Positions 9,149 to 23,792 of a stretch of DNA of 61,501 nt are shown here, in pieces. The DNA lies in IMG/VR virus record IMGVR_UViG_3300028007_000002, positions 1 through 61,501 of that record. One strand, written 5' to 3'. The translations under genes were made by a program, and so were the position numbers. How positions within the stretch are numbered: the first letter of the stretch is position 1; each line of letters begins with the position of its first letter. Source of the DNA: a virus (lineage: Duplodnaviria; Caudoviricetes). The notes below the pieces were generated by a model, which was not told where the DNA came from, did not search any database, and saw only the letters and a program-made list of their open reading frames with translations.

Positions 9149-11236
9149 ATGCCAGATATCTACGACCTCGCTGACCAGCATCGTGCCGAACTGCTGCGCC
9201 GGGAGCAGGCTGCCGCCGGCGCGATGGTGCGCGCCTACGGTCTGGCCTGGCAGCGGATCGAGCGTGACCTGAACGCCCTTTCGCGGCAGATCGAGGACAC
9301 GCGATCACGCGGCGAGGAGATCTCGCCGGCGTGGCTGCTCCGTCGGGACCGGCTGACCGAACTTCAGCGGCAGACGGAGATCGCGGTCGACCAGTTCGCC
9401 GCGTCGGTCGATCACACCATCCAGCAGGAGCAGACACGGGCCATCGAGGCGGGGCGACGTCACGCCGGTCAACTGATGCAGGCCGCAGCGGGTGGCGGGG
9501 CCGAGCTCGTCGGTAATTTTGCTCAGGTGCCGACGGGGGCACTGACCACGATGGTGGGGATGCTGGGCAATGGATCCCCGCTCCGGTCGCTCCTGGATCA
9601 GTTCGGGCTGGCGGCGAGTCAGGCTGTGGGCGATGCGTTGATTGAGGGGCTGGCCATCGGCCAGAACCCGCGGATGATTGCCCGGCGAATCCGGGATGCC
9701 CTCGACGGGAACATGGTCCGGGCGCTGACGATTGCTCGGACGGAGACGCTTCGAGCCTATCGCGAAGCCACCCGACAGACCTACGCGGCGAACAGCCGGG
9801 TAGTGAAGGGGTGGATCTGGCACTGCGCGCTCGATCGCCGGAGCTGCGCACTGTGCGTGGCCATGCATGGGAAGCGGTTTGACGTTCAGGAGCGATTCGG
9901 CACGCATCCCAATTGCTTTCCGGCCGGGACTGTTGCGTCAGGTCCCAGAGCGGTAGGGAGTACTGAGCGGTGGTATGAAGGCGATCTTGTCGAAATAGAA
10001 ACTGCCAGGGGGCACCGGCTTTCCGTCACCCCGAATCACCCGGTACTGACGGCGAAAGGTTGGGTCGCGGCGGGATTCCTCCAAGAAGGTGACGATGTAG
10101 TCAGCAGCATCGGAAGTCAGGGGCCAATTCCGGGAATCGACCCAGATGATTATCAGGTTCCAGCCCTGATCGAGGAGGTAGCACGATCGGTCGGGGGTTC
10201 GACTCCGATGCGAGCCGTAGGCATGCCAACCGCCCCCGAAGATTTCCACGGCGACGGGATCGGCTCCAAGGTCCACGTTGTACGGACCAATGGCCTTCTG
10301 AGGCGTACTCTCAATCCCTCGCTCTTCCAACCACCTCTTGAGCAATTCCTCGGTCGAGGATACCCCCAGCCGCCGCTCTTCTCGGGTCTTCGCTGTTTTG
10401 CATCGTTCTTCGATCGTCTTGACTCGGCCTCGAACGGCGGCATGGGCTGCCTCCGTCAGCCGTCTGTTGTCCTCAGGGCTGCGTCGCTCGGCCATCAACC
10501 GGTTTGCCTCGACAGAGCCTCGGCGGGGAACCCCCGCTTCGCGGAGTCGAACTCCGATGACGTTGCGAGACACTCCGTACTCTTCAGCCAAAGCCTTTTC
10601 GGACTCTCCCGCCAAATACCGGGCGGAGATTTCCGGCATGGGCAGGGGGATGTAGGCACGTCTTCGAGCGCTCGCGCGTTCACCCGCCAGCAGGTAGCGA
10701 GCGGCCTTGTCACGCCACAAACCCCGGTCCTTGATAGCCTCGCGGAGTCGCTGCTCACTAATGTGAAATCGAGCAGAGGCGTTCTGGCAGCTTTCGCCGG
10801 CGATGTAGGACTGGATCGCATTCTCAAGATCAGCCGCCGAAGCTTTCGTGGGCATGTCTACAACCTCGAAACAACTGAGGGGTGGTACCACGCCAACGGT
10901 ATTGTAGTTCACAATTGTCGCTGCGCGATGATTCCGGAAACCCGGACCTGGGACGAGTTGGGCTTCCGGGGCATCGCCGAAACCTCGGTTCAGGTGGAGG
11001 CCGGCGCCGACTGGTTTGCTCGGCAGTCAGTCGATCTCCAGCGGGAGATTCTGGGGCCAACGAAGCTGGTTGCTTATCAGGGCGGGGCGATTCGGCTGGA
11101 GGATCTGGTTGGGGTGCGGCAGGATCCACGGTGGGGCATCACCCGCCACCAGTTGAGCCTGCGGCAGCTCCTCGGCCCGGCTGAAACCAATCGCTGGCGG
11201 GTTGCGGCCGGGCTTCCACCGCAGCATCCAGTTTGA
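9149..11236 (+). CDS. minor capsid/head morphogenesis protein (Mu gpF/SPP1 gp7-like) containing an intein
   Basis: RALTIARTETLRAY, CALCVAMHG; the HPNCRC motif is split by a 334-aa insert. Confidence 0.9.
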   Translation: MPDIYDLADQHRAELLRREQAAAGAMVRAYGLAWQRIERDLNALSRQIEDTRSRGEEISPAWLLRRDRLTELQRQTEIAVDQFAASVDHTIQQEQTRAIEAGRRHAGQLMQAAAGGGAELVGNFAQVPTGALTTMVGMLGNGSPLRSLLDQFGLAASQAVGDALIEGLAIGQNPRMIARRIRDALDGNMVRALTIARTETLRAYREATRQTYAANSRVVKGWIWHCALDRRSCALCVAMHGKRFDVQERFGTHPNCFPAGTVASGPRAVGSTERWYEGDLVEIETARGHRLSVTPNHPVLTAKGWVAAGFLQEGDDVVSSIGSQGPIPGIDPDDYQVPALIEEVARSVGGSTPMRAVGMPTAPEDFHGDGIGSKVHVVRTNGLLRRTLNPSLFQPPLEQFLGRGYPQPPLFSGLRCFASFFDRLDSASNGGMGCLRQPSVVLRAASLGHQPVCLDRASAGNPRFAESNSDDVARHSVLFSQSLFGLSRQIPGGDFRHGQGDVGTSSSARAFTRQQVASGLVTPQTPVLDSLAESLLTNVKSSRGVLAAFAGDVGLDRILKISRRSFRGHVYNLETTEGWYHANGIVVHNCRCAMIPETRTWDELGFRGIAETSVQVEAGADWFARQSVDLQREILGPTKLVAYQGGAIRLEDLVGVRQDPRWGITRHQLSLRQLLGPAETNRWRVAAGLPPQHPV
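9914..10915 (+). mobile_element. intein (334 aa) in gpF-like protein
   Basis: Starts CFPAGT; block B LSVTPNHPVLT; block F VYNLETTEGWY; ends VVHN; +1 residue Cys; removal restores HPN|CRC. Confidence 0.9.
9938..10855 (-). CDS. endonuclease encoded antisense within the intein (HTH repeats plus DUF559/Vsr-like PD-(D/E)xK domain)
   Basis: GAGG before ATG 10855; two Y.AGES HTH-like repeats; SSTEELL...QKAIGPYNVDLG...VAVEIFGGGWH...QGWNLIIIW. Confidence 0.8.
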   Translation of the reverse strand: MPTKASAADLENAIQSYIAGESCQNASARFHISEQRLREAIKDRGLWRDKAARYLLAGERASARRRAYIPLPMPEISARYLAGESEKALAEEYGVSRNVIGVRLREAGVPRRGSVEANRLMAERRSPEDNRRLTEAAHAAVRGRVKTIEERCKTAKTREERRLGVSSTEELLKRWLEERGIESTPQKAIGPYNVDLGADPVAVEIFGGGWHAYGSHRSRTPDRSCYLLDQGWNLIIIWVDSRNWPLTSDAADYIVTFLEESRRDPTFRRQYRVIRGDGKPVPPGSFYFDKIAFIPPLSTPYRSGT

Positions 11237-11306
11237 GGGCGAGGGCGAACGATGAACCAGTGCGCCGTCGTCACCCGCATTGACTGTGGCCCTCAATTTC
11301 AAACAG

Positions 11307-11351
11307 CCTGCGCGGAACTCGTTTCCCCCTCGGATGAGCGGCCTATCATGG
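11307..11351 (+). promoter_or_regulatory. repeated promoter-like motif, copy 3
   Basis: CCTGCGCGGAAC-N22-GCC-TATCAT-GG upstream of scaffold and capsid genes. Confidence 0.55.
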
Positions 11352-11370
11352 CGCCTGATGCGCGACCATT

Positions 11371-11394
11371 CATCCGGGAAGCATCCGGGAAGCA
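11371..11394 (+). repeat. 11-nt tandem repeat in scaffold leader
   Basis: CATCCGGGAAG x2 followed by CA, just before the RBS. Confidence 0.7.
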
Positions 11395-11405
11395 CTGAGG
11401 GAAAC

Positions 11406-11990
11406 ATGCCTGACGAGCAGACGGGCCAGGAGCCCAACCCGACCGGCCAGGAGCCGACCGGGACCGCCGGCAGTGAGTCCACCGCCACGACGCAAACCAC
11501 GCCGTCAAGCGCCGGAGCCGAAACGCAGCAATTCACGGCTGAGTACGTGTCGCAGCTGCGTCGGGAAGCCGCCGAGAACCGCACCAAACTCCGCGCCCTG
11601 GAGGCGGCGGAAAAGAAGCGGCAGGAAGCGGAGATGACCGAGTCGCAGAAGCTTCAAGCGAGGGTGACCGAACTGGAGGCCAATCTGACGGCGCGGGAAG
11701 CCCAGTTGCGGGAGACAACCCTCCGCACCGCGGTGACCGCCGCAGCCATCGAGGCAGGCGCCAGCAACCCGAGCGTGCTCGTGCGGCTGATTGACCCGAG
11801 TGCCGTCGAGTACGCCGAAGACGGTAGCCCGAAGAACCTGAAGAAGCTGGTCGAGGGGCTCAAGGCCCAGGTGCCTGCCCTCTTCAAACCCACGACACCG
11901 GGCGGGTCCGCTGATGCCGGCGCGTCCGGCAAGGCCGGCGGTGCCCCGTCGATGAATGACCTGATCCGCCAGCGGGCAGGTCGCTCCTAG
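11406..11990 (+). CDS. capsid scaffolding protein
   Basis: Low-complexity N-terminus (TGQEP x2), YVSQLRREAAENR coiled coil, GSADAG...SMNDLIR; precedes capsid gene. Confidence 0.85.
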   Translation: MPDEQTGQEPNPTGQEPTGTAGSESTATTQTTPSSAGAETQQFTAEYVSQLRREAAENRTKLRALEAAEKKRQEAEMTESQKLQARVTELEANLTAREAQLRETTLRTAVTAAAIEAGASNPSVLVRLIDPSAVEYAEDGSPKNLKKLVEGLKAQVPALFKPTTPGGSADAGASGKAGGAPSMNDLIRQRAGRS

Positions 11991-12019
11991 ACAGACCACT
12001 CCCACTCGAATCCATTTTC

Positions 12020-12065
12020 GAGGCCCGAGCCCAGTGAGGCCAGAGCCCTTCTGAGGACAGCTCTG
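12020..12065 (+). promoter_or_regulatory. tandem GAGGC-CNGA-GCC motif plus RBS-occluding hairpin (site 1, major capsid)
   Basis: GAGGCCCGAGCCC and GAGGCCAGAGCCC; stem CAGAGC-CCT/AGG-GCTCTG covers GAGG and the first base of GTG. Confidence 0.7.
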
Positions 12066-13012
12066 TGCCGTACAACAACATCACCGATCGCTCTGATGCC
12101 TCTGCCCTGATTCCCGAGGAGGCCGCGTCGCAGATCATTCAGGATCTGCCGAAAACCTCTGTCGCCCTGACCCGGTTCCGTCGGGTGACCATGAGCCGCA
12201 AGCAGCAGCGCATGCCGGTTCTTTCGGCCCTGCCGACCGCCTACTTCGTGGAAGGCGATACCGGTCTGAAGCAAACCACCGAACAGGCTTGGACCAACAA
12301 GTACCTGAACGCCGAAGAGTTGGCCGTCATCGTACCAATTCCGGAAGCCGTGCTCGATGACACCGAGTTCGACATGTGGACCGAGATCCGGCCGCGACTG
12401 GTTGAAGCTCTCGGGATCGCCGTCGATGGCGCCGTGCTTTTCGGCACCAACAAGCCGGCGAGCTGGCCCGACGCGATCGAAGATGGTGCGGCCGCGGCTG
12501 GCAACGCCTTCACTCGCGCCAGCGTGGCCAACAAGGACCTGGTTCACGACATCAACAAGTGCATGGGCTTGGTCGAGGCTGACGGTTTCGACGTGAACGG
12601 TTTCCTGGCGCGGAAGAGCCTGAAGGCCGACCTCCGAGATCTGCGGGACAGCAACGGCCAGCCGATTTATTCTGCCAGCCTGACCTCGCCGACGCCGATG
12701 ACGGTCTACGCCGAGCCAGTGCAGTACGTCGACAATGGCGCCTGGGATAACACGCGGGCTGATCTCATCTGCGGCGATTTCACGCAGGGGATCATGGCGG
12801 TCCGGCAGGATCTCCAGTGGAAGCTGCTGAGCGAGGCCGTGATTCAGGATAACACCGGCGCCATCATCTACAACCTCGCCCAACAGGATATGGTCGCCCT
12901 GCGCGTGACCATGCGGGTGGCTTTCCAAGTCGCTAACCCCACCACGCGCCTGAACCCCAACGGGAGCACCCGCTACCCGTTCTCGGTTCTCCGGCCGGCC
13001 GGCTTCGTCTAA
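12065..13012 (+). CDS. major capsid protein (HK97 fold)
   Basis: LIPEE, AYFVEG, AEELAVIVPIPEAVLDD, GDF, NLAQQDMVALRVTMR. Confidence 0.92.
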   Translation: MPYNNITDRSDASALIPEEAASQIIQDLPKTSVALTRFRRVTMSRKQQRMPVLSALPTAYFVEGDTGLKQTTEQAWTNKYLNAEELAVIVPIPEAVLDDTEFDMWTEIRPRLVEALGIAVDGAVLFGTNKPASWPDAIEDGAAAAGNAFTRASVANKDLVHDINKCMGLVEADGFDVNGFLARKSLKADLRDLRDSNGQPIYSASLTSPTPMTVYAEPVQYVDNGAWDNTRADLICGDFTQGIMAVRQDLQWKLLSEAVIQDNTGAIIYNLAQQDMVALRVTMRVAFQVANPTTRLNPNGSTRYPFSVLRPAGFV

Positions 13013-13015
13013 GCC

Positions 13016-13273
13016 GTGATCTATCTCATGGTGAGGAGTCCGGAGGGTGATGTGATTCGGGTGAGCGCCAAGGCGTTCGCCCTGATCTACCGCCCTTTGG
13101 GCTTCGTTGAGCACACGGAAGAGGCAAACGATGCCGATGTCGGAGAACGAAGCCCGAACCCGGCTCCAGACGATGACGGCATCGAGCAAGGAGCCGACGC
13201 TGACCGAGGCGGAACTCGGCCTGCTGGTGGCAAGCGCCAAGCGGGCGGACCGCGACGGTCTGCCGCCAAGTGA
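13016..13273 (+). CDS. small hypothetical protein after capsid gene
   Basis: GTG right after capsid stop; overlaps next gene. Confidence 0.4.
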   Translation: MIYLMVRSPEGDVIRVSAKAFALIYRPLGFVEHTEEANDADVGERSPNPAPDDDGIEQGADADRGGTRPAGGKRQAGGPRRSAAK

Positions 13274-13490
13274 CGCGGCCTGGACCCCGACATGGGATCT
13301 GAACGCCGCGGCGGCCGAGGGCTGGCGCTGGAAGGCAGCGAAGGCCGCCGCGGATTTCGACTTCAGTGAGGATGGCCAGTCATTCAAGCGCTCGCAGATG
13401 GTCGCGGCCTGCGAGCGGATGGCCGACCTGTACGGCCGCCGGGTGATCGGAACGCTCCCGATTCCGGGGGCTCTGACGGTCCCGAGCTAA
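13131..13490 (+). CDS. head-tail connector/adaptor
   Basis: WDLNAAAAEGWRWKAA...FDFSEDGQSFKRSQ; position after capsid. Confidence 0.7.
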   Translation: MPMSENEARTRLQTMTASSKEPTLTEAELGLLVASAKRADRDGLPPSDAAWTPTWDLNAAAAEGWRWKAAKAAADFDFSEDGQSFKRSQMVAACERMADLYGRRVIGTLPIPGALTVPS

Positions 13491-13541
13491 GTGACATGTC
13501 ACGTAGCAAGCCAGGTAGCAAGTTAAGTGCTGAGTTAGCGC

Positions 13542-13745
13542 ATGCCCACGGAAGATGAGCGCGCGGCGCAGTATCGTCGCGATCAGCAGGCCGGCGAGAA
13601 CGCCGCCGTGATCCGCTGGCGGGCCTTGGCCGGCAACAAGGCGGCCTATAAGGCGCTCTTGGGAAAAGTCCGGCCGCTCCAACGGGATGCTGGCTGGGAT
13701 CCGATTGAACGAGTCCGCGAGAACGAACGCGCGGCAAACGGCTAG
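13542..13745 (+). CDS. hypothetical protein
   Basis: ORF within structural operon. Confidence 0.45.
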   Translation: MPTEDERAAQYRRDQQAGENAAVIRWRALAGNKAAYKALLGKVRPLQRDAGWDPIERVRENERAANG

Positions 13746-13757
13746 GGGAGGCGTTAC

Positions 13758-14624
13758 GTGCCGGATCAGGAGCTGCATGCCCGGAGTGAGAAGATCCTCC
13801 GGGGAGATGGAACGGTTGCCCGCGAGGTGGGCGACATCTTCGGGGTGAAGAGCGACGCGGAGAGCGCCGCCGGCGACGGCACGGTCATCGCACTCCTGAA
13901 ACGACTGCGGACGGCGTTGGCTCCCGCGACCGCCGCCGACGACCTGGCCAACCCGACCTCGCCCCAGGTGTTGAGCCACCAGCACGGCTACGACGGCACG
14001 GTCTGGCGGCGGCTGCGGACGACCGCGAGTGGCGGCTTAGTCGTGGATACTGAGCTGCCAGCCGCTGTTGTCGTCACCGACGATATGACCAGTCCGACCG
14101 CGCCTCAGGTATTGGCGCACCTGATGGCCTTCGATGGCGTTACCTGGGACCGGGTTGCCACAGTCAACCGGGTTGGAGATGCCGCTGCGACCGGCATCTT
14201 GGCTGTTGGAGGCTTTGCCTATAACGGGACTAATTTCGATCGGGTTCGAGCTAATACCGAAGGCACACTGCTGGCCAGTGCGGCCCGGACGGCATCTATC
14301 TCAAGTGCCGACCAGACCAATCATAACGCGTCCGGAGTTCTTATCACTCTGAATGTGACGGCAGTGTCCGGCAGCGCCGGCGTCGTGTTGAGGATTTCCG
14401 GCAAAGATCCCGTGAGTGGCTCTTACCACAATCTGAATGCAGCGATTGCTTCCATCACAACCGTCGGACTGCGGACGTACTATATCTACCCCGGTATAGC
14501 TGCTCTGAACAATGGCGCGACTCAGCCCGTCAACGCGATTCTACCCCGCACATGGCGGGTGACAGTGACGCATGACAATGCAGACTCGATTACTTATTCA
14601 GTCGGATTTGCTCTCATTCTCTAG
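13758..14624 (+). CDS. putative virion decoration/fibre protein with internal repeats
   Basis: Repeats DD...PT.PQVL.H...DG..W.R (x2) and YNGTNFDRVR; beta-rich C-terminal domain; GGAGG RBS. Confidence 0.6.
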   Translation: MPDQELHARSEKILRGDGTVAREVGDIFGVKSDAESAAGDGTVIALLKRLRTALAPATAADDLANPTSPQVLSHQHGYDGTVWRRLRTTASGGLVVDTELPAAVVVTDDMTSPTAPQVLAHLMAFDGVTWDRVATVNRVGDAAATGILAVGGFAYNGTNFDRVRANTEGTLLASAARTASISSADQTNHNASGVLITLNVTAVSGSAGVVLRISGKDPVSGSYHNLNAAIASITTVGLRTYYIYPGIAALNNGATQPVNAILPRTWRVTVTHDNADSITYSVGFALIL

Positions 14625-14632
14625 GAGGCAAC

Positions 14633-14893
14633 ATGCCAGCGGCACACATTGTCAGTCAGTGGCAGGACGCCCACAGCGCCTATCTCGCCGTCCGGGTGGA
14701 TGAGGGCGAGCGGGACGATAAGGGTAAGCCGGCCTACACCGAGTACATCGGCAGCGTCCCCCTCGGTGAGCTGGCCGATCTCAGCGAGTCCGACCAGCAG
14801 GCGGCCCTGATCGCGGCGGTCAAGGCGGAGCGGGATCGGCAGGTCGTGCCGGAGCAGCCCATCCCGGCCATGAAGGGGCCGGTGACGATCTGA
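14633..14893 (+). CDS. hypothetical structural protein
   Basis: AGGAGG RBS; TGATG coupling. Confidence 0.55.
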   Translation: MPAAHIVSQWQDAHSAYLAVRVDEGERDDKGKPAYTEYIGSVPLGELADLSESDQQAALIAAVKAERDRQVVPEQPIPAMKGPVTI

Positions 14894-15255
14894 TGATCAG
14901 TGCTGCGACCCTCGACGGGATGCGGGCAACCCTGAACGCGAGTCTGCCGGACGACGCGGTTATCCAGCGCATCGTGAAGGTGGATGACGGACAGGGCGGC
15001 TTCATCGAGGGGACGCCGACCATCGTGGCCTCGCCCAAAGTGCGGGTGAGCACGGCGGATCTGACCCGCGAGGAAAACACGATGGCCGAGCGGGTTGGGA
15101 TCCAGACAGCTTGGATCCTGACCTTTCCGGCCGAAACCGATGTCACAGCCAAGGATCGCATAGTTGTCGGCGGCCGAACGTTCGAGGTGGCGGCGGTGCT
15201 ACGGCCGCGATCATGGGAGATCAGTCGGCGGGTGCTGGCACGGGAGTTTTTGTAA
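14893..15255 (+). CDS. head closure protein (SPP1 gp16-like)
   Basis: DDGQGG...TDVTAKDRIVVGGRTFEV. Confidence 0.75.
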   Translation: MISAATLDGMRATLNASLPDDAVIQRIVKVDDGQGGFIEGTPTIVASPKVRVSTADLTREENTMAERVGIQTAWILTFPAETDVTAKDRIVVGGRTFEVAAVLRPRSWEISRRVLAREFL

Positions 15256-15512
15256 TGGATCAGATCGGGATGGTGATCTCCCGGCTGGACTCGATCGATC
15301 GCCGTCTTGATCGGATGGAGCGCCAGCAGGAATCGCATGTGAACAATCACGAGAGGGATCAAGCCGGTATATCGGCGCAGGCGGTCGTGCTGGAGAACCG
15401 ACTGACCAAGGTTGAGGGGAGTGTGAGCACACGCACCTGGCTGGGTGGTGTCGGCCTTGTTTTCTCGGCCCTGATCTCGGCGTTATCGACCACGATGGGG
15501 GTGAAACCGTGA
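15255..15512 (+). CDS. coiled-coil protein with C-terminal TM segment; holin-like
   Basis: RLDSIDRRLDRME coil followed by hydrophobic C-terminus. Confidence 0.55.
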   Translation: MDQIGMVISRLDSIDRRLDRMERQQESHVNNHERDQAGISAQAVVLENRLTKVEGSVSTRTWLGGVGLVFSALISALSTTMGVKP

Positions 15513-15751
15513 AGGTGAATTGGGCGCTGGTGAGCTACGGGACACTGGCTGTGCTGAACCTGATGCTGACGGCGTTCGCGGTGGAACTGGGGGCCGGCCG
15601 CGTGCCGATCCCGGCCGAGGCACAGTGGGTCGTCCCGGTTTTGGTGGCCGGCCTCACCGGCGCGACGATGCTCCTGCCGAGGCTGCGACTGACGGCGGGA
15701 GGGAGTGCTCAGGTGACTGTGGATACTGCTATCTCAGAGAGCGAGTCATAA
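15509..15751 (+). CDS. two-TM holin-like membrane protein
   Basis: Two hydrophobic segments in 80 aa. Confidence 0.5.
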   Translation: MKVNWALVSYGTLAVLNLMLTAFAVELGAGRVPIPAEAQWVVPVLVAGLTGATMLLPRLRLTAGGSAQVTVDTAISESES

Positions 15752-15789
15752 CGTCAGCGCTCTATCGACCGGAGAGGATGCGAGGTCAG

Positions 15790-16125
15790 GTGGCGAGAGT
15801 CAGCATCAAGACGCAGCTTGTTTTCAACAAGCTGCCCGAGCTTCGGGGGCAGGTACGCCGTCGAGCGGCCGACGCTGTGACGAAGGCGGCCTTCGATGTG
15901 GAGGCCCAGGCCAAGGCACTGGCACCGGTCGATACCGGTGCCCTCAAGAGCAGCATCCAGGCCCAACCTGAGGGTGATCTGGCGGCGCGAGTGGATGTCG
16001 GGGCCGAGTACGGCATCTACGTGGAGTTCGGGACGCGGAAAATGCGGGCTCAGCCATTTCTCGAACCGGCCGCCGAGCAGGTCAAGCCGAGCTTTGAAGC
16101 AGCCATGCGACAGGTCGCCGGGTGA
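15790..16125 (+). CDS. HK97 gp10-like tail completion/neck protein
   Basis: APVDTGALKSSI, YVEFGTRKMRAQPFLEPA. Confidence 0.9.
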   Translation: MARVSIKTQLVFNKLPELRGQVRRRAADAVTKAAFDVEAQAKALAPVDTGALKSSIQAQPEGDLAARVDVGAEYGIYVEFGTRKMRAQPFLEPAAEQVKPSFEAAMRQVAG

Positions 16126-16520
16126 ACGAGCTCGAGGCGGCAATCGCCACCCGGCTGAAAGAGGACACCACGCTGATCGGGTTGGGGATGACCGGCGTGC
16201 ACCGGTGGCCGGCGCCGGAGGAGGCGCCGTTCCCCTACGTGGTCTTTCAGCCACGGCCCGGCCGGGATCGGTACACCTTGGCCCGCCGGGCCTGGGAGGA
16301 ACTGCCCTATCAGATCGAGGCCATTGACAAGAGCCGGTCAGCCAAGCGGGCCGGCCAGATGGGCGACCGGATCGACGCTCTCTTCACGGATCAACCACTT
16401 GCGGTGACTGCGCGGAACACGCTCTACGCCCGGCGCCAAACCCGTATCAATTTCAGTGAACATGAAGACGGTGTCGTCTACCAGCATGGTGGCGGCGTTT
16501 TCGCGTTCTGGGAGGCGTGA
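16122..16520 (+). CDS. tail terminator protein (DUF3168-like)
   Basis: APEEAPFPYVVF; position between gp10-like gene and tail tube. Confidence 0.7.
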   Translation: MNELEAAIATRLKEDTTLIGLGMTGVHRWPAPEEAPFPYVVFQPRPGRDRYTLARRAWEELPYQIEAIDKSRSAKRAGQMGDRIDALFTDQPLAVTARNTLYARRQTRINFSEHEDGVVYQHGGGVFAFWEA

Positions 16521-16690
16521 TGGCCGAGAAACGGCGCTATCTGGTCAAGAACGGCCTGAACTATGGGCAACGCCGGGTGGAAGCGGGCGAGATCGTGGAT
16601 GACATCCCACGCCAGTCGATTCATTGGCTGCTGCGGGATGGCCATATCGAGGTAGTGCCCAGGGAAGCGAAGGACGCGACTGATGAATGA
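16520..16690 (+). CDS. small structural-region protein (56 aa, not in ORF track)
   Basis: MAEKRRYLVKNGLNYGQRRVEAGEIVDDIPRQSIHWLLRDGHIE; GGAGG RBS and TGATG coupling. Confidence 0.6.
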   Translation: MAEKRRYLVKNGLNYGQRRVEAGEIVDDIPRQSIHWLLRDGHIEVVPREAKDATDE

Positions 16691-16850
16691 GCCGATCCGC
16701 TTGCAGGACGTGCGCTGCCCGGCCTGCGGGCGTCTCCTGTTTCGGGCGCGGCCGTGTGAGGGTGGCCATGCCGAGGTGAAATGCACCTGCCGGCGGCTCA
16801 TCGTCGTGCGGCGCGGCGTGCAGGCGATCGAGAGCAACCAAGCGGCGTAA
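16683..16850 (+). CDS. Com-like zinc-ribbon regulator (55 aa, not in ORF track)
   Basis: MNEPIRLQDVRCPACGRLLFRARPCEGGHAEVKCTCRRL resembles the Mu Com pattern RCxxCxxLL...IKCxxC. Confidence 0.7.
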   Translation: MNEPIRLQDVRCPACGRLLFRARPCEGGHAEVKCTCRRLIVVRRGVQAIESNQAA

Positions 16851-16859
16851 TGCCGTCGC

Positions 16860-16910
16860 GAGAGGCCGGAGCCCGAGAGGCCGGAGCCGGAATCCTGAGG
16901 AGGTTCCGGC
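16860..16910 (+). promoter_or_regulatory. tandem GAGGC-CGGA-GCC motif plus RBS-occluding hairpin (site 2)
   Basis: GAGAGGCCGGAGCC x2; stem GCCGGAA(T)CCT/AGGTTCCGGC covers GAGGAGG directly before GTG 16911. Confidence 0.75.
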
Positions 16911-17624
16911 GTGCCATTTCTCCACGGATCCCAGGCTCGGGTCTACGCCAATGGCTACGATCTCAGCCCCTACTTCTCTAGCATCAGCACGTCGGGGGAA
17001 TCCGACACGGCTGAGACCTCGACCCTTGGTGCCACGGCCAAGACCTACATCCCCGGATTGCGGGACGCGACGCTGAGCGCCGAGGGCTATTTCGACGGAG
17101 AGGCCAACGCGGTCGATGAAGCTCTGAGCACGGCGCTCGGTCAGGACGCTTCCGTTTGGACGGTCCTGCCGCAGGGCGACGTGATCGGCAGCTACGGCTA
17201 CGGCCTATCGGCCATCCTGACATCCTACGAGGTGAATAGTCCGGTCGATGGCGTGGTGGATTGCTCGGCCGAGGCACAGTCCAAGGTTGGCCGGGAACGG
17301 GGCATCGTTCTGCACGTGCTGGCGGCCCGGAACTCCTCGAGTAACGCGGCAAGCCAGAACAACAGTGCGGCCAGCACGAACGGCGGCGCGGCCTACCTTC
17401 AGGTGATGGGTCAGACCGGCAGTGCCAGCAATTCGACCGTGAAAGTCCAACACAGCGTCGACAACAGCGTCTGGACGGATCTGGTGACGTTCACGGTGTT
17501 CAACGGGCGGACGGCGGAGCGGCGGGCGATCACGGGCACCATCAATCAGTACACGCGGGCATCGTGGACGCCGGCGGCCGGCGCCACCATCACGTTTGCC
17601 GTGCTGCTGTCGCGGGCAGCCTAA
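16911..17624 (+). CDS. tail tube-like protein with C-terminal extension
   Basis: DTAETSTLG...KTYIPGLRDAT...LTSYEV; paralog of next gene. Confidence 0.75.
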   Translation: MPFLHGSQARVYANGYDLSPYFSSISTSGESDTAETSTLGATAKTYIPGLRDATLSAEGYFDGEANAVDEALSTALGQDASVWTVLPQGDVIGSYGYGLSAILTSYEVNSPVDGVVDCSAEAQSKVGRERGIVLHVLAARNSSSNAASQNNSAASTNGGAAYLQVMGQTGSASNSTVKVQHSVDNSVWTDLVTFTVFNGRTAERRAITGTINQYTRASWTPAAGATITFAVLLSRAA

Positions 17625-17649
17625 GCCGCGACGCCAATTGAAAAAAGGT

Positions 17650-17696
17650 AGGCCGGAGCCCGAGAGGCCGGAGCCCAGATTCAAGGAGTCTGAGCG
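17650..17696 (+). promoter_or_regulatory. tandem motif plus RBS-occluding hairpin (site 3)
   Basis: AGGCCGGAGCCC and GAGAGGCCGGAGCCC; stem CAGATTC/GAGTCTG over AAGGAG. Confidence 0.75.
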
Positions 17697-18098
17697 ATGC
17701 CTTTCGCGCACGGTTCACGAGCCAACTTCCGGTTGCACAACGGTTCGACCCTCACGGATCTCTCGACCTACATCACTAGCGTGGGCTGGTCACCGGAGCA
17801 GGAGACAGCCGAGACCTCGACCCTCGGCGTGACCAGCAAGACCTACATCCCCGGTCTGCGGGACGCGACCATCAGTATTGAGGGCAAGTTCGATCCAGCG
17901 GCTGACGCCGTAATCGAAGCGGCGTGGGGCAACCTGCGGGCGTTCCAGTATCAGCCGGCCGGCCCCGGCACCGGCAACGTGCAGTTCTCGGGCTCGGTCA
18001 TCCTGACCAGCTACGAGGTCAGCGCCGATATGGGCGATGCGGGCAGTTTCAGCGCCGAGTTTCAGGTGACCGGTGCCTATACCCGGACGGTTCTCTAA
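17697..18098 (+). CDS. major tail tube protein
   Basis: ETAETSTLG...KTYIPGLRDATISIEG...FSAEFQVTG; precedes chaperone and tape measure. Confidence 0.85.
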   Translation: MPFAHGSRANFRLHNGSTLTDLSTYITSVGWSPEQETAETSTLGVTSKTYIPGLRDATISIEGKFDPAADAVIEAAWGNLRAFQYQPAGPGTGNVQFSGSVILTSYEVSADMGDAGSFSAEFQVTGAYTRTVL

Positions 18099-18125
18099 TC
18101 CCTGACGCGATCCCACACCTGGCCC

Positions 18126-18153
18126 GAGGCCGGAGCCTATGAGGCCGGAACCC
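18126..18153 (+). promoter_or_regulatory. tandem motif (site 4, tail chaperone leader)
   Basis: GAGGCCGGAGCC and GAGGCCGGAACCC; downstream hairpin weak. Confidence 0.6.
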
Positions 18154-18170
18154 TACAGGTGAAGAACGAC

Positions 18171-18539
18171 ATGACGACCGAAAAGACCGAGTCCCGCGTG
18201 CTAACCCTCGATGAGATCCTGCATGCCGGCGATCTGGAGACGCTGACCGTGCCCGTCCCCGAATGGGATGGCGCGGTGGTGATCCAGTCGATGACCAAGG
18301 CGGTCCAGCAGGATCTCCGACGGAAGGCCATGAACGGCAAGGATCTCGACAACGATCGCTTCGAGATGCTGCTTTTCATCCAGTCGGTGATTGAGCCGAC
18401 CATGGGCGAGGAGCACTACGAGGCGTTGCGGCAGAAAAGCGCGACGGCGATCGATCGGGTGAACAAGGCGATCCTCAATCTGAACGGGATATCGCCGGAG
18501 GCTCAGAAGGAGGCGGACCGCTCCTTTCGCGACGAATAG
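18171..18539 (+). CDS. tail assembly chaperone (gpG-like); alternative start GTG 18159
   Basis: LTLDEIL...VPVPEWDGAVVIQ; between tail tube and tape measure. Confidence 0.8.
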   Translation: MTTEKTESRVLTLDEILHAGDLETLTVPVPEWDGAVVIQSMTKAVQQDLRRKAMNGKDLDNDRFEMLLFIQSVIEPTMGEEHYEALRQKSATAIDRVNKAILNLNGISPEAQKEADRSFRDE

Positions 18540-18708
18540 CGAGCAGCGCTTTCTCTACCGCCTGGCGCGCGACCTCAAGACGACGGTCGCGGAGTTGGAG
18601 CGGCGGATGACGGTCCGCGAGTTCAACCGCTGGCTGGCGTTCTACAACCACGAGGCCCGCGAAGAGAAAAAGGCGGCCGAACGGGCCAAGCGCCGTCGCG
18701 GGCGATAA
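18526..18708 (+). CDS. gpT-like C-terminal extension of the chaperone, in the +1 frame
   Basis: FLYRLARDLKTTVAELERRMTVREFNRWLAFY; no start codon upstream of this conserved block; TCC TTT CGC at 18522-18530. Confidence 0.65.
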   Translation, partial: FATNSEQRFLYRLARDLKTTVAELERRMTVREFNRWLAFYNHEAREEKKAAERAKRRRGR

Positions 18709-18714
18709 CCCCCC

Positions 18715-18766
18715 GAGAGGCCGGAGCCCGAGAGGCCGGAGCCCACTTCGTTTGGAGTGGGCTTTT
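18715..18766 (+). promoter_or_regulatory. tandem motif plus RBS-occluding, terminator-like hairpin (site 5, tape measure)
   Basis: GAGAGGCCGGAGCCC x2; AGCCCACTTC-GTTT-GGAGTGGGCT followed by TTT. Confidence 0.75.
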
Positions 18767-18769
18767 CCT

Positions 18770-21700
18770 TTGTCCGAAATCGCCAAACTCTTCGTAAAAA
18801 TCGGCGCCGACGTCAAGGACGCAATGTCCGGCTTCGACGCCGTTCACAGCCGAATTGAGTCATTCGGCAAGTCGGCGGCGACGACCGGCGCGGTCATGAC
18901 GGCCGGCCTGACCGTGCCGTTGCTGGGCACGGCGAAGGCGGTTGGTGACGTCGGGATTTCTTTCGAGTCGGCTTTCGCTGGCGTACGGAAGACGATCGAT
19001 GCGACTGAGGAAGAGTTCGCCCAACTGCGGACCGGGATCCGCGACATGGCCAAAGAGATCCCGACGGCCCGGGAGGAGATCGCCGGCGTGGCCGAGGCAG
19101 CCGGGCAGCTCGGCATCGCGAAGGAAAGCGTTCTCGGTTTCACCCGCACGATGGTGGACTTGGGCGTCGCGACAAATCTGACCGCCCGGGAAGCGGCCAC
19201 CGATCTGGCGCGGTTCGCCAACATCACTCGGATGCCCCAGACCGAGTTCCAAAACCTCGGCTCGACGATTGTGGCGCTCGGAAATAACTTCGCGACGACC
19301 GAGCGCGAGATCGTGGCGATGGGCATGCGCATCGCCGGCGCTGGATCAACGGTCGGGATGACGCAGTCCCAGATTATGGGCTTCGCGACGGCCCTGTCGA
19401 GCGTGGGCATCGAGGCAGAAGCCGGCGGCACGGCGATCTCGCGGGTGTTCGTGGACATCGCCAATGAGGTGGCCTCGGGCGGCAAAAAGCTGACGGAATT
19501 CGCCAAGGTCGCTGGCATGTCCGCGTCTGAGTTCTCGGATCGGTTTAAGACCGACGCCGCCGGCGCCGTGACGGCTTTCATCGGCGGGCTGGGGAGGATT
19601 CGGGACAGCGGTGAGAACGTCTTCGCGGTCTTGGAGAAGCTCGACATGAGCGACATCCGGGTTCGCGACGCGCTGCTCCGATCGGCCGGTGCGGGGGATC
19701 TGCTCGGTGACGCAATCGCCTTGGCAAGCAAGGCCTGGGATGAGAACAACGCGCTGACCAAAGAGGCCGAGCAGCGGTACGCGACGGTGGAGTCGATGCT
19801 CCAGATCGCCAAGAACAAGTTCACGGATCTGGGCATCACGATCTTCGATCGGGTGCGGCCGGCGTTGGTCTCGGCTCTCGGGATTGTCGAGGGAGTCACC
19901 GGCGGACTCAAGGGACTCATCGATCGGTTGGCCGAGGCTGATCCGCGACTTCTCGCGGCCGGCGCTGCCTTCCTCGGCGTATTGGCTGCGGCCGGCCCGG
20001 TGATCGGCATCGTGGGCGCACTGGCGACTGGATTGGCATTCTTGATGACTCCGATCGGGCTGATTGTGGCCGGGGTGGCGCTGCTTGCCGCCGCCTTTGC
20101 CGCAGATTTCCTGGGCATCCGGACAACGGTCCTCGGCTTCGTGGCAGCCGTGCAGCCGATCCTCTCCGCGTTCCTGGCTTTTCTCTCGACAGGCAGCTTC
20201 AGTTCCCTCGCCGACTTCAGCGCCGCTATCACCAAGGCGTTCGGCCCGGATGCGGTGGCTCTTGCGTTCGGCTTCGCCACCCAGGTTCAAGCAGCTCTCG
20301 AGAAGGTGAAGGCGATCGCCGCCGGCTTTGCCTCCGGCGGATTAGCCGGCGGAGCGACGAGCATCCTGTCTCAGATCTTTGGGATGGACGAGGATGCCGC
20401 GACCGGACTCATCCAGCGCGTCACCGGTCTGATAGGCCGCGTGGTGTCCACCGCTCAAGAGGTGATCGGTGCGTTTGCGTCCGGCGGCCTGGCCGGCGGC
20501 GCCATGAAGATCGGTGAAATCCTGGGCCTGGACGAAGCCGAAATCGGCCGAATTGTGGGGCTGGTGAGTTTCGCTTTCGGCGAGATCGTCAGCTTCGCCC
20601 AGACCCACCTGCTGCCAGGCCTCATGAACGTCGGGTCGGCTATTCAGTCCAACGTGATCCCAGCCATCATCCAGATTGGCCAGTTCGTGGTGACCGAGGT
20701 CATACCACGATTGGCGGAGCTGGAGGCGATGATCGCCTCCCGAGTCGTCCCCATTTTGACCCAGTTGGCGGGGTTCCTGATCGGGAACGTCGTCCCGGCT
20801 ATCCAGCAACTCGCGGCGAATTTCCAGAAGTTCGTGGGAGAGATTCTCCCACTAATCGGGCCAGCCATGGACGGTCTGATGAATAACATCGCGACTGTTT
20901 TGGCGGCTATCAGTGCCTTCTGGCAGGAACACTGGACTTCGATCCAGCGGGTGTTGCAGTCCACCTGGGACGTGCTCAAGAGCGTGGTCGAAGTGGGGCT
21001 GACGCTGATCTCGGGGTTAATCAAGACCATCTTGCGTGTGATCGCCGGGGATTGGGAAGGCGCTTGGGACGAGCTGAAAGCCACTCTGGAGAAAACCTGG
21101 CAGGTGATGCAATCGAACCTGGAGACATCTCTGATCCGGTTTGGGGCACTGATCATCGAGGGCCTCAAAACGCTGGAGTCCAAAGGCCGGGAGGCTGCTC
21201 AAGCGATCGGTCGGGCCATCGTGGACGGCATCACCGGGGCGCTCAATGCCGGATGGAGCAAGATCCAGGAGGCGGCCAGCGGGCTGGCGGACGCGATCCC
21301 CTCGACCGTTAAGAGCATTCTCGGGATCCGCTCACCGTCTCGGGTCATGTCCGAGCACGGGACCCAAGTGGTGGCCGGCCTGGCCCAGGGCATTACATCG
21401 AAGAAGGATCTGGTCAACGCGGCCACCAAGTCTCTCTCAATGGGTCTGATCGAAGAGTCGCAGAAACTGCTTCGGATGACCGAAGACATCGGCAAGCAGA
21501 TGCCGGTCCGGATCGCGGCCGGCATCCGGGCCGCCGAGAAAAAGTCCATCTACGCGGTAGAGAGTTTTGGTGACCGGCTCAATCGGTCATTCCACGATGA
21601 CAATCTGAGCTTCAAAGACGTGCTCTCGGAGCACTACGGCGTGCCCTATCTTGAGTCGATCTTTCAGGCCGGCCAAACGGAACTAAACCGCGTCTACGCC

Positions 21701-21859
21701 GAGGAAGCGAAGGCACGCGAAGAGCAAGCCATCACCGACGCCAAGATCATCAGCCTGTTGGAATACATCGCCGAGAAGGAAACCCGGCTGAACCGGAGCG
21801 ACCTGGCAGAACTCGGCAAGGTGGCCGCCAACGCTATCCGTGTCAAGGAGATGCGCTAA
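18770..21859 (+). CDS. tail tape measure protein (TP901-like core); probable TTG start
   Basis: FESAFAGVRKT, AEAAGQLGI, LGNNFATTE, EAGGTAISR, LGIRSPSRV; about 1030 aa, Ala/Gly-rich. Confidence 0.95.
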   Translation: MSEIAKLFVKIGADVKDAMSGFDAVHSRIESFGKSAATTGAVMTAGLTVPLLGTAKAVGDVGISFESAFAGVRKTIDATEEEFAQLRTGIRDMAKEIPTAREEIAGVAEAAGQLGIAKESVLGFTRTMVDLGVATNLTAREAATDLARFANITRMPQTEFQNLGSTIVALGNNFATTEREIVAMGMRIAGAGSTVGMTQSQIMGFATALSSVGIEAEAGGTAISRVFVDIANEVASGGKKLTEFAKVAGMSASEFSDRFKTDAAGAVTAFIGGLGRIRDSGENVFAVLEKLDMSDIRVRDALLRSAGAGDLLGDAIALASKAWDENNALTKEAEQRYATVESMLQIAKNKFTDLGITIFDRVRPALVSALGIVEGVTGGLKGLIDRLAEADPRLLAAGAAFLGVLAAAGPVIGIVGALATGLAFLMTPIGLIVAGVALLAAAFAADFLGIRTTVLGFVAAVQPILSAFLAFLSTGSFSSLADFSAAITKAFGPDAVALAFGFATQVQAALEKVKAIAAGFASGGLAGGATSILSQIFGMDEDAATGLIQRVTGLIGRVVSTAQEVIGAFASGGLAGGAMKIGEILGLDEAEIGRIVGLVSFAFGEIVSFAQTHLLPGLMNVGSAIQSNVIPAIIQIGQFVVTEVIPRLAELEAMIASRVVPILTQLAGFLIGNVVPAIQQLAANFQKFVGEILPLIGPAMDGLMNNIATVLAAISAFWQEHWTSIQRVLQSTWDVLKSVVEVGLTLISGLIKTILRVIAGDWEGAWDELKATLEKTWQVMQSNLETSLIRFGALIIEGLKTLESKGREAAQAIGRAIVDGITGALNAGWSKIQEAASGLADAIPSTVKSILGIRSPSRVMSEHGTQVVAGLAQGITSKKDLVNAATKSLSMGLIEESQKLLRMTEDIGKQMPVRIAAGIRAAEKKSIYAVESFGDRLNRSFHDDNLSFKDVLSEHYGVPYLESIFQAGQTELNRVYAEEAKAREEQAITDAKIISLLEYIAEKETRLNRSDLAELGKVAANAIRVKEMR

Positions 21860-22269
21860 TGGCCTTCTATGCGTTTCGCCTCGGAACCGCTAATCCCCTC
21901 ACTTCAGCCGATGACCTGCCGGGCGTGAGTCCCGACGATGTGACCAATGAGTACACGCTCATTGGCAAGCAGCGCGAGTTGGCCGAGGGGACGCTGGTTG
22001 AGGACATCATTGCCTATCGAGCAACCTACAGTTTTCAATTGCGCTCTTTGACCCACGCTCAGCGTGAACGGCTGGAAGTGCTGCGGCGGACAGCCGGCAC
22101 AGTGCGCCTCCGGGATGAGCGCGGTTTAGAGTACCCGGTCCGGTTCATCACACCCGTCACATTCACGACGATCCCTGTTAGCGTTGAGGACCCTCAGGAG
22201 GCCGGCCGGTACTTCCGGTACAACGCTGCGTTTGCCGTCCAGGTCGTCACGGCCGCGGGATCGTTCTAA
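21859..22269 (+). CDS. minor tail protein (distal tail-like)
   Basis: Directly after tape measure; TAATG coupling. Confidence 0.6.
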   Translation: MAFYAFRLGTANPLTSADDLPGVSPDDVTNEYTLIGKQRELAEGTLVEDIIAYRATYSFQLRSLTHAQRERLEVLRRTAGTVRLRDERGLEYPVRFITPVTFTTIPVSVEDPQEAGRYFRYNAAFAVQVVTAAGSF

Positions 22270-23792
22270 TGGCCCGGCCACCTATCGATACCAGCAACAA
22301 CACCAGCCGCCGACCGGTCAAAAAGATCGAGATTGCTTGGGACGGCGTCACCTACGTTGACGAGTCAGCCCGGGTTATCAGCATCGCCGGCGTCAGTGAA
22401 ATCACGGCGCCGGATGCCGGGCTCTCGGCGGTGGGCGCGTCGATCGCTGACGCTTGCACCGTCATCCTCAACAACACCGACCGGCGCTACGGCGCCAACA
22501 ATCCGTCCGCGGCGCTCTATTCACTCCTCAACCGGACCGCCAACCCGGCGAACGCCGGCGGCTACCTGCGCCCGATCCGAATCTCACTCGGGTTCGTGAA
22601 CTCGTCTGGCACGCCCCAGTACCTCCAGGTGTTCCAGGGCGTGATCGTGAAACCGGCCGAGCGCTGGGGAGAGCGGACCTATGAGCTGGAGTGTCTTGAT
22701 CGGTGGGTTCTCCTCCGGCGGAAGCGGGCCTCGACTGGGCTCCTCCTCAACCGCCGACCGGATGAGCTGATCCAAGAGGCACTCAACGCCAGCGCACTCG
22801 GCTATGCCAGCAGTCTGGAGCCGAGCGAGCGCATCATCGAATATGCCTGGCTCGATGACGATCCGATCGCGGATGAGCTTGTCCGCATCGTCACTGCGGA
22901 CGGTGGGCTGATCTGGTTTCGCTGGGACGGCACCCTGATGTACGCCTCAAGCTCCTGGCCGGCCCGTAATACGACATCGGTCTACACCTTCACCACGCAG
23001 CGCTTCGAGGCGCTTGAGCCCGAGTGGGACTTCGATCAGGTCTATGACCAGATCAGCGTCCGTTGTCAGCCGCTCTATCCCGGATTGCTGGAGACCATCT
23101 GGGAGTCGGGCGAGGAGATCGTGATCGAGCCGGGTGGTACGAGGGCGATCACCGCACAATGGCGCCAGCCGGCCTATGCCGTCGTTGACCCATTGGCCTA
23201 CTCGACCGATGAGGATGCGACCGACTGGATCGCTCGGACCAGCGCCAATCAGCCAATGGAGTCGGGCGGGGCGTCCCTCGTCACCGTTGCCCTCTCGAAC
23301 GTGAAGGCCCAGCGCTGCACCGTGATGTTGACCAACACGGACACCAGCCGACGGGCCTACATCGGCCGGCTACGCATCCGGGGCCAACTGCTGGTGCCCG
23401 GTCAGGAAATCCACGCGGCAGCAGGGAGCGGTGATCAGGTCCTCTCGATCGACAACGAGTACGTCCAGAACCGTGCTCACGCCCAAGCAATCGCGGATGC
23501 ACTCCGCCAGCGCTTCCGGCGACCGCGCCAGACAGTCCGCCTGTCTGGTGTGCCGGCTCAACCCCATCTGGAGGTGACCGACCGGGTGACCGTTACCGAG
23601 ACATCAACGGGCATCAACCGGGATTTTTTCATCGCCCGGAAGGCCTACCGTTTCAGTGCAGACGATGGTTACGTCGAGGATTACGACCTGGTCGATGTCG
23701 CAGACTTCACCGAGCACAGCAACTATTTCCGGATGGGCACGAGCGTTTACGGCGGGCCTGGCGTCAGCGGTGCCGGCCGAGTGTGGTACTGA
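22269..23792 (+). CDS. minor tail/baseplate hub-like protein
   Basis: LNNTDRRY, DGGLIWFRWDGTL, SIDNEYVQ, PHLEVTDRVTV; synteny. Confidence 0.7.
   Translation: MARPPIDTSNNTSRRPVKKIEIAWDGVTYVDESARVISIAGVSEITAPDAGLSAVGASIADACTVILNNTDRRYGANNPSAALYSLLNRTANPANAGGYLRPIRISLGFVNSSGTPQYLQVFQGVIVKPAERWGERTYELECLDRWVLLRRKRASTGLLLNRRPDELIQEALNASALGYASSLEPSERIIEYAWLDDDPIADELVRIVTADGGLIWFRWDGTLMYASSSWPARNTTSVYTFTTQRFEALEPEWDFDQVYDQISVRCQPLYPGLLETIWESGEEIVIEPGGTRAITAQWRQPAYAVVDPLAYSTDEDATDWIARTSANQPMESGGASLVTVALSNVKAQRCTVMLTNTDTSRRAYIGRLRIRGQLLVPGQEIHAAAGSGDQVLSIDNEYVQNRAHAQAIADALRQRFRRPRQTVRLSGVPAQPHLEVTDRVTVTETSTGINRDFFIARKAYRFSADDGYVEDYDLVDVADFTEHSNYFRMGTSVYGGPGVSGAGRVWY

Follow-up and report, generated by a model that had tools for sequence, protein, structure and literature searches.

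Genes and paired boxes in the window

The window analysed here is a virus record of 61,501 nucleotides (61.5 kb) from IMG/VR (IMGVR_UViG_3300028007_000002), a temperate siphovirus from soil with an estimated completeness of 77% and a G+C content of about 63%. Our analysis concerns a 13-nt box that stands as a tandem pair in front of five virion genes, and a small cysteine-rich open reading frame (ORF) that ends directly upstream of one of these pairs. The gene set of the window is that of a temperate siphovirus and comprises terminase, an SPP1-type portal, a Mu-F-like minor head protein, scaffold and an HK97-fold capsid, together with head-tail connectors, two major tail proteins, a chaperone, a tape measure, a lysin, two integrases and replication genes. 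The genes that follow the boxes encode the major capsid protein, the two major tail (tube) proteins, the tail assembly chaperone and the tape measure (Table 1). An earlier note on this DNA had placed the boxes before these genes, three of them with GTG or TTG starts. The gene calls hold, with GTG starts for the capsid and first tube genes and a TTG start for the tape-measure gene, and with one amendment: the chaperone probably starts at ATG 18171 rather than at GTG 18159, because its PHROG match begins only at residue 6 of the GTG-started ORF.

The box has the consensus GAGGCCGGAGCCC (the GAGGCCNGAGCCC type) and occurs in ten copies, all of them intergenic, on the plus strand and arranged as five tandem pairs. 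Within a pair the period is 15 nt (16 nt at site 1), with a variable linker of 2-3 nt, and the second box ends 16-25 nt upstream of the start codon of the capsid, tube 1, tube 2, chaperone or tape-measure gene, each of which has its own separate Shine-Dalgarno (SD) sequence in between. Upstream of site 5, the chaperone frameshift ORF reaches its stop at 18706-18708. The earlier note had claimed paired boxes in front of these five genes, and the counts bear this out: GAGGCCNGAGCC has eight exact matches in the window compared with 0.10 +/- 0.33 expected from 100 dinucleotide shuffles, none of which reached eight. Allowing up to one mismatch to GAGGCCGGAGCC added a single match, which is coding (at 10997), and a scan of the window detected no sixth box pair. 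A dispersed repeat of the repetitive extragenic palindromic or miniature inverted-repeat type would be expected in many copies, in both orientations and away from gene starts; in the window there are five pairs only, all on the plus strand and all upstream of start codons.

Table 1. Positions of genes, box pairs and predicted structures in the window.
Feature	Position	Strand	Remarks
Major capsid protein gene (putative target 1)	12065-13012	+	GTG; PHROG_10 1.6e-52; Pfam Phage_capsid 7.9e-31
Major tail (tube) protein 1 gene (putative target 2)	16911-17624	+	GTG; PHROG_9522 2.7e-54
Major tail (tube) protein 2 gene (putative target 3)	17697-18098	+	ATG; PHROG_10528 8.2e-33
Tail assembly chaperone gene (putative target 4)	18159/18171-18539	+	ORF opens with GTG 18159; PHROG_344 1.7e-12
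Tape-measure gene (putative target 5)	18752/18770-21859	+	in-frame TTG at 18752 and 18770; PHROG_13339 2.9e-122
Com-like cysteine-rich zinc-ribbon ORF, 55 aa	16683-16850	+	proposed trans-acting RNA-binding regulator; PHROG gpCom 6.8e-5
Site 1 box pair	12020-12032, 12036-12048	+	GAGGCCCGAGCCC-AGT-GAGGCCAGAGCCC; 16 nt 5' of capsid GTG
Site 2 box pair	16862-16874, 16877-16889	+	21 nt 5' of tail-tube-1 GTG; directly 3' of Com-like ORF
Site 3 box pair	17649-17661, 17664-17676	+	20 nt 5' of tail-tube-2 ATG
Site 4 box pair, degenerate	18126-18138, 18141-18153	+	GAGGCCGGAGCCT, GAGGCCGGAACCC; 5' of chaperone gene
Site 5 box pair, perfect	18717-18729, 18732-18744	+	between chaperone frameshift ORF and tape-measure gene
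Site 1 predicted structure	12034-12073	+	box 2 pairs with region of SD GAGGA 12053-12057 and GTG 12065; opening 13.6 kcal/mol free, 4.3 masked; shuffles 127/500
Site 2 predicted hairpin, 10 bp	16886-16910	+	GCCGGAAUCCU/AGGUUCCGGC; holds SD GAGGAGG 16897-16903; shuffles 5/500
Site 3 predicted hairpin	17673-17695	+	7-bp core CAGAUUC/GAGUCUG plus outer GC pairs; pairs SD AGGAG 17684-17688; shuffles 31/500
Site 5 predicted hairpin, 12 bp, with U-rich tail	18738-18775	+	GGAGCCCACUUC/GGAGUGGGCUUU; shuffles 1/500

Paired boxes in other phages

Pattern scans with the exact and a slightly relaxed motif covered IMG/VR, the JGI metagenomes and one genome per GTDB species, and a true site was taken to be exactly two boxes with non-repetitive flanks in an intergenic position. 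Such double boxes were found in ten further phage lineages, represented by the loci L064 (the same as L005, with two sites), L006, L007, L047, L049, L056, L065, L119, L120/L123/L125 and L122; L078, L093, L105, L121 and L124 were ambiguous or coding and are left out of the tallies. A cysteine-rich ORF of 43-64 aa ends 9-37 nt upstream of box 1 in seven of the eleven lineages, namely the window and six of the ten others (L006, L007, L049, L065, L119 and L120/123/125). This linkage was not selected for by the box search. A profile built from five box-adjacent ORFs (A2) also finds box-adjacent ORFs outside its build set, in L119 (7.5e-7) and L120/123/125 (about 3e-6), and in L122 it matches 2.1 kb upstream of the boxes (E 1.8e-4).

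The genes downstream of the boxes vary. They encode capsids of two PHROG families (phrog_1005 in L006; phrog_10 in the window and L120), major tail proteins (L007, L119) and a regulator-like protein (L065); the capsid ORF of L049 has the N-terminus of the window capsid, and at one of the two L064 sites (L064b) a ParB/methyltransferase gene follows. Only one box pair each is present in the complete records from which L006 (14.4 kb) and L007 (15.4 kb) come. Since the linked ORF recurs and these two records contain a single pair, one regulator with one adjacent target emerges as the common layout, as in com-mom, and the window, with its five sites, represents an expanded form of it.

Among the cultured phages in INPHARED there was no double box and no tblastn match to the 55-aa protein. 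The sole relative of the tail-tube proteins in IMG/VR, L108 (41% identity, low G+C), has neither boxes nor a zinc ribbon. A looser IMG/VR scan with GGCCGGAGCC-N5-GGCCGGAGCC returned 42 stretches, of which 37 were coding pentapeptide-type repeats, three were already known and two were variant boxes (L029 and L043); the exact scans returned 35 metagenome and 26 genome stretches that were mostly coding repeats.

Several of these loci show further features. The variant of the box pair at the capsid site, in which N7 is C in box 1 and A in box 2 and the period is 16 nt, is identical in the window (12020-12048) and in L120 (3657-3684), L123 and L125, and the capsids encoded behind it have 315 aa in the window and 407 aa in the L120 lineage. 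L120 also carries a second Com-like ORF (2506-2661; likewise in L123 and L125) about 1 kb upstream of the box-linked one; it is followed by a terminator-like hairpin with GAGGCC and no consensus boxes, and then by the next gene. In L047 (432-660), a 96-bp unit stands in tandem upstream of a ribbon-helix-helix-like ORF. Consensus boxes are found in its copy B; copy A has GTG in place of each of the four GAG (GTGGCCGGTGCCC twice) and the same downstream hairpin, so that it could serve as a natural non-binding or alternative-specificity control. The variant pairs of L029 (4964-5025) and L043 (4322-4260, minus strand) are of the AGGCCGGAGCC type, with the first G missing. In both, box 2 provides the left arm of a long terminator that contains a nested hairpin, and one pair at the base of the stem changes from A-U to G-C between the two loci; the profile found no Com-like ORF in either. 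Searches from single close homologues led to Com-like ORFs at L116 and elsewhere, none with consensus boxes. The one in L116 (864-1046), on another phage contig, lies directly upstream of a prohead-protease-like gene, and Com-like genes inside head modules may be common.

A Com-like zinc-ribbon protein next to site 2

The earlier note had described the 55-aa ORF upstream of site 2 as a Com-like gene. The ORF is indeed present; 9 nt separate its stop from the extended repeat at 16860 and 9-11 nt from site 2, and its protein has PHROG matches to 'gpCom control of modification' (Table 1) and to 'translational regulator' (7.7e-4). The connection to the Com family of Pfam (PF10122, Zn_ribbon_Com) runs through other proteins: BLASTP of the window protein against P0056 gave an E value of 2e-7 (34% over 47 aa), and P0056 itself scores 42.3 bits on PF10122, where the cut-off is 22.9. 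Furthermore, the window protein shares 47% identity with the box-adjacent ORF of L120 (E 6e-8). Profile A2 matched 406 proteins at E<=1e-3 among 1.84 billion; when 60 of its short top matches were scanned, 34 matched PF10122 at E<=0.01 and 17 passed the Pfam gathering score. Atlas neighbours carry the name 'Mu-like prophage protein Com', and two box-adjacent ORFs themselves score on PF10122 (L065, 0.0031; L007, 0.02). By sequence, the direct link of the window protein to the Com family thus appears weak and the link through other proteins good.

In an alignment of 61 sequences, C12, C15, C34 and C36 are invariant (consensus VRCPxCxxLLF...VEIKCRxC). The four cysteines form two knuckles within about 30 residues, the second of which is CxC in the window protein, and zinc binding is predicted. 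The AlphaFold2 (AF2) model of the window protein is a small all-beta ribbon with five short strands and a predicted local distance difference test (pLDDT) score of 77.9. Among solved structures, no Com-like match was found by sequence, and a Foldseek search of the model against the PDB returned nothing at E<=0.001.

A second small zinc ribbon (2212-2427, 71 aa), named in the earlier note as an alternative regulator, did not hold up as one. Its PHROG match to 'translational regulator' reaches just 1.2e-3, no boxes follow it, and it is absent from the A2 profile matches, with no match at E<1. It has a long insert between its knuckles.

Predicted structures at the sites

We number the positions of the box G1 A2 G3 G4 C5 C6 N7 G8 A9 G10 C11 C12 C13. 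Each box could form a mini-hairpin of 3 bp, in which G3G4C5 pairs with G10C11C12 around a CNGA loop (GGC[CNGA]GCC), and fold predictions show exactly this mini-hairpin on box 1 of window sites 1 and 5, L007 and L047. The ten window boxes contain six deviations from the consensus, five of them outside the stem (positions 1, 7, 7, 13 and 13) and one inside it (position 10, at the degenerate site 4). This pattern is consistent with the mini-hairpin, yet it is no covariation.

According to the earlier note, hairpins that begin in box 2 hide the ribosome binding site (RBS) at four of the five sites. A stem-loop sequestering the SD sequence or the start codon is indeed predicted at four of the five window sites, as well as at L006, L007, L047, L049, L065, L119 and L120. 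Its strength differs between sites. When box 2 plus the sequence up to the start codon was folded and compared with 500 shuffles of the downstream part, no more than five shuffles folded as well at 12 of 17 sites. These comprise 8 of 13 sites in a first set (window sites 2 and 5, L006, L007, L049, both L064 sites and L065) and all four of a later set (L119, L120, L123 and L122, with L123 nearly identical to L120). The signal was weaker at window site 3 (31/500) and L047 (38/500) and was absent at window site 1 (127/500), L056 (174/500) and window site 4 (296/500). The stem sequences differ at every site and are unrelated to each other, but they always begin in the last bases of box 2, as had been proposed when the note described unlike hairpins with pairing kept. 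At site 2, the left arm begins in box 2 and the right arm abuts GTG 16911; at site 5, the 3' half of box 2 serves as the left arm, opposite a right arm that contains the SD sequence GGAG (18754-18757); the site 3 hairpin likewise starts at the last bases of box 2.

We also calculated the cost of opening positions -14 to +5 around the start codon, either freely or with both boxes forced to be unpaired as a mimic of bound protein. Masking of the boxes lowered this cost by 8.9-11.7 kcal/mol at eight of ten sites, by 4.3 kcal/mol at window site 2 and by 0.9-3.6 kcal/mol at window site 4; at L119 and L120/L123, the decrease was 10-18 kcal/mol. The opening cost falls from 20.2 to 10.7 kcal/mol at site 3 and from 13-16 to 3-7.5 kcal/mol at site 5. 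In box-less controls (29 gene starts with three offsets each), the mean decrease was 1.5 and the maximum 8.2 kcal/mol, so that none of the 87 values reached 8.9.

The hairpin at site 5 had also been proposed to be a possible attenuator, and here the prediction gained ground. Its stem (18738-18765) has 12 pairs, six of them G-C, and is followed by the tail TCCTTTGTCC; with a G+C-rich stem and a U-run it is a predicted terminator and the top terminator-like match of a scan over 9000-23000. Elsewhere, too, box 2 supplies the left arm of strong hairpins with a T-run behind them, including clear intrinsic terminators: besides window site 5, this arrangement is present at L064b, L122 and the variant pairs of L029 and L043.

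Comparison with known systems

The Com-mom system of phage Mu is a textbook oddity, in which one protein acts on one mRNA of one accessory gene. In the available part of the published work, the Com site is given as CC(N)2-3GAG and adjoins a translation inhibition structure, and the core obtained by systematic evolution of ligands by exponential enrichment (SELEX) is GAG(N)2CC, with 868 of 999 sequences being bipartite; two motifs bind Com better than one, and the bipartite form is preferred (PMC6483171). The relatives named in the available text are the Com-methyltransferase pairs of FluMu, B3 and Pnm1 (PMC6483171; PMC3299994).

The box can be read as C5[C6 N7 G8 A9]G10, that is, as CC(N)1GAG with a C-G closing pair, and each site contains four GAG-N-CC units. 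As far as the available account of the Com site goes (PMC6483171), the box resembles it without being identical: both would present CC..GAG in a short hairpin loop closed by C-G. Further likenesses to the system outlined there are the gene for a small protein with four cysteines directly upstream of the target on the same strand (the window, L006, L007, L049, L065, L119 and L120/123/125), an RNA site beside a stem-loop that hides the start signals, here as a prediction only, and the pairing of the boxes, which parallels the better binding of Com to two GAG/CC units. On the other hand, Com as portrayed in that text has a single target, a DNA-modification gene, in Mu-like transposable phages, whereas the window is a temperate siphovirus with five putative targets that are virion structural genes; the L006 and L007 records do have one site each. 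The window sites moreover consist of a fixed 13-nt tandem box with a 15-nt period, and the competing hairpin is sometimes a terminator, differences that again refer to the published portion considered here. The protein differs as well, in that it is tied to PF10122 only through other proteins.

A second resemblance is to the start-associated sequences (SAS) and extended SAS (ESAS) of Cluster K mycobacteriophages. In the available part of their description, these are asymmetric 13-nt repeats, GGGATAGGAGCCC, which end in GGAGCCC, occur in one orientation just upstream of many gene starts and are not found in the host; they were suspected to act in translation, with no binding factor known (PMC3203893). 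The window boxes share with them the length, the GGAGCCC end, the single orientation and the tie to gene starts. According to the same partial description, SAS occupy the RBS 3-7 bp from the start, are single and precede non-structural genes, while the window boxes have another sequence, are tandem, end 16-25 nt upstream of the starts with a separate SD sequence, precede structural genes and are linked to a zinc ribbon (PMC3203893). With sequence, position, copy number and gene class all different, we do not assign the boxes to the SAS/ESAS repeats.

In antitermination of the BglG/SacY-RAT type, the RNA element bound by the protein overlaps the left arm of an intrinsic terminator, and this overlap makes binding and termination mutually exclusive; the same would apply to site 5, L064b and L122. 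The protein fold and the RNA element of that system are unrelated to those described here, and the window box would also gate translation. In the literature searched, the box string gave three matches, all unrelated, and no paper ties Com-like proteins to the control of capsid or tail genes. From sequence and folding models, the system would be a Com-type riboregulator with a distinct tandem box, set in siphoviruses and in front of five virion genes, which apparently also gates terminators.

A model for the control of virion genes

On balance, we favour the explanation that the boxes are mRNA binding sites of the phage's own Com-like zinc ribbon, which probably acts as a translational activator, and at some sites as an antiterminator, of a regulon that has expanded to five virion genes. 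From sequence, comparison between phages and folding models, we infer RNA binding, activation as the direction of the effect, and antitermination. In this model, each box would fold as the mini-hairpin GGC[CNGA]GCC and present CC-N-GAG in the loop closed by C-G. As long as the protein is absent, the 3' half of box 2 would pair with the sequence just downstream and bury the SD sequence or the start codon, and at site 5 box 2 would also complete the terminator-like hairpin. Once the protein has accumulated, it would bind both boxes and keep box 2 in its mini-hairpin form, which would block the inhibitory hairpin. The capsid, tail-tube and tape-measure genes would then be translated, and transcription may read through into the tape-measure gene. 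The earlier note had already proposed a Com-like zinc ribbon acting on paired RNA boxes with RBS-hiding hairpins, and the adjacent ORF in six further lineages, the Com-family link, the likeness to the Com site and the hairpins anchored on box 2 all argue for this proposal.

Several observations weigh against it. The likeness of the boxes among the fetched loci is no evidence of constraint, because the exact-match search imposes it. Four lineages lack an adjacent zinc-ribbon ORF (L047, L056 and L064, on short contigs, and L122). The 55-aa window protein has no match in Pfam, including PF10122, at E<=0.1; the box-adjacent ORFs of L006 and L049 match only generic zinc-ribbon or unnamed families and not Com; and some pairs of box-adjacent ORFs show no significant similarity by BLASTP (E 2.2 and 0.11). 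At 4 nt (CC-N1-GAG), the loop of the box is shorter than the 5-6 nt given for Com sites (PMC6483171). Site 4 has no hairpin and that of site 1 folds no better than shuffled sequence, and energy models for short RNAs are approximate. Finally, a lone double box lies on a Streptomyces chromosome (L099, 2614-2640), 17 nt upstream of a membrane-protein gene; it is the only such site in this 10.1-Mb genome, in which the profile search detected no Com-like ORF. The L099 site could have arisen by chance, could be a relic or could point to a host factor.

A host factor is the alternative that survives best, although we consider it unlikely. The boxes might be read by a host component, either the 30S subunit, for which they would be a standby or enhancer site, or a GGA-binding host protein, and such a component would likewise compete with the inhibitory hairpin. 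CsrA-type proteins recognise GGA in small hairpin loops, and with one GAGG and one GGAG in every box, four SD-like cores are available per pair. The lineages without an adjacent zinc-ribbon ORF and the Streptomyces site fit this idea. So does the great divergence of the box-adjacent proteins next to boxes that are alike, but the likeness of the boxes is that imposed by the search. Moreover, a host component gives no account of the zinc-ribbon ORF directly upstream in seven of eleven lineages and leaves the likeness to the Com site unexplained. The boxes also retain bases that do not belong to the SD cores, namely CC and the final CCC.

It appears improbable that the boxes act as DNA, in which case the zinc ribbon or some other factor would bind them as an operator of direct repeats, or within a late promoter, and control transcription of the virion genes. 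Direct repeats in tandem would be typical of an operator, every site lies upstream of a gene, and one Atlas neighbour cluster has been automatically named 'Com family DNA-binding transcriptional regulator'. However, there is no room for a -10 element and a leader, because box 2 ends so close to the start codons (16-25 nt) with a separate SD sequence in between. A scan of the plus strand in 9000-23000 revealed no sigma-70-like site, and none of the large ORFs of the window was seen to encode an RNA polymerase or a sigma factor. The boxes are always in sense orientation, and a DNA site offers no reason for RNA hairpins and terminators of unrelated sequence that are anchored on box 2.

Just as improbable in our estimate is a role in RNA processing or stability, in which an RNase would cut the long late transcript within or close to the boxes and the hairpins would stabilise 5' or 3' ends, setting the ratios of capsid, tube and tape-measure mRNAs without the zinc ribbon. 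The sites flank the genes of the most abundant virion proteins, strong hairpins stand at gene borders, and a terminator-like element precedes the low-copy tape-measure gene, all of which would suit processing; the hairpins, however, bury the SD sequence instead of lying upstream of it, and the linked zinc-ribbon gene and the Com-like site would be left unaccounted for. We consider it highly improbable that the box pair lacks a regulatory role and is a small repeat of a selfish kind or one prone to recombination: it is short, repeated and present in unrelated phages, and in L047 it is part of a 96-bp tandem unit, but it has a single orientation and a fixed distance from start codons, is never coding or on the opposite strand, and is coupled to local structure.

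If the boxes are indeed sites of the Com-like protein, Com-type riboregulation would extend to core virion genes, in the form of a multi-site regulon and on terminators as well as RBSs. Late-gene control in tailed phages is usually described as transcriptional, by activators, antiterminators and sigma factors. More speculatively, and with less confidence than we place in the model itself, the Com-like zinc ribbons of soil phages could represent a portable post-transcriptional late switch, in which a tandem 13-nt RNA box can be placed before any gene and, depending on the partner of box 2, turns on translation or prevents termination, and which would have spread from one to five targets in this phage. 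Such a switch would yield a regulon timed by a protein, able to adjust how much capsid, tube, chaperone and tape measure is made relative to one another with no need for a late promoter. The model would also suggest what type of factor may read orphan start-associated repeats, the Cluster K SAS among them, and would supply a protein-RNA pair that is compact (55 aa and 28 nt) and orthogonal; Com/aptamer pairs are reportedly already used as a tool.

Other features of the window

The two tube genes (16911-17624, 237 aa; 17697-18098, 133 aa) are tandem paralogues with one box pair each, and the low-G+C relative L108 likewise has two major tail (tube) genes. The Mu-F-like minor head protein (9149-11236, 695 aa) matches an intein splicing domain over residues 276-589 with 35.8 bits, which is exactly the Pfam cut-off. 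Of the two integrases, one is tyrosine-type (3448-4506) and lies just upstream of the small terminase gene, and the other is a large serine-type enzyme encoded on the minus strand (44145-45893). A 24-nt tandem repeat of 2.5 copies with 75% match is located at 46652-46712, near the divergent early region.

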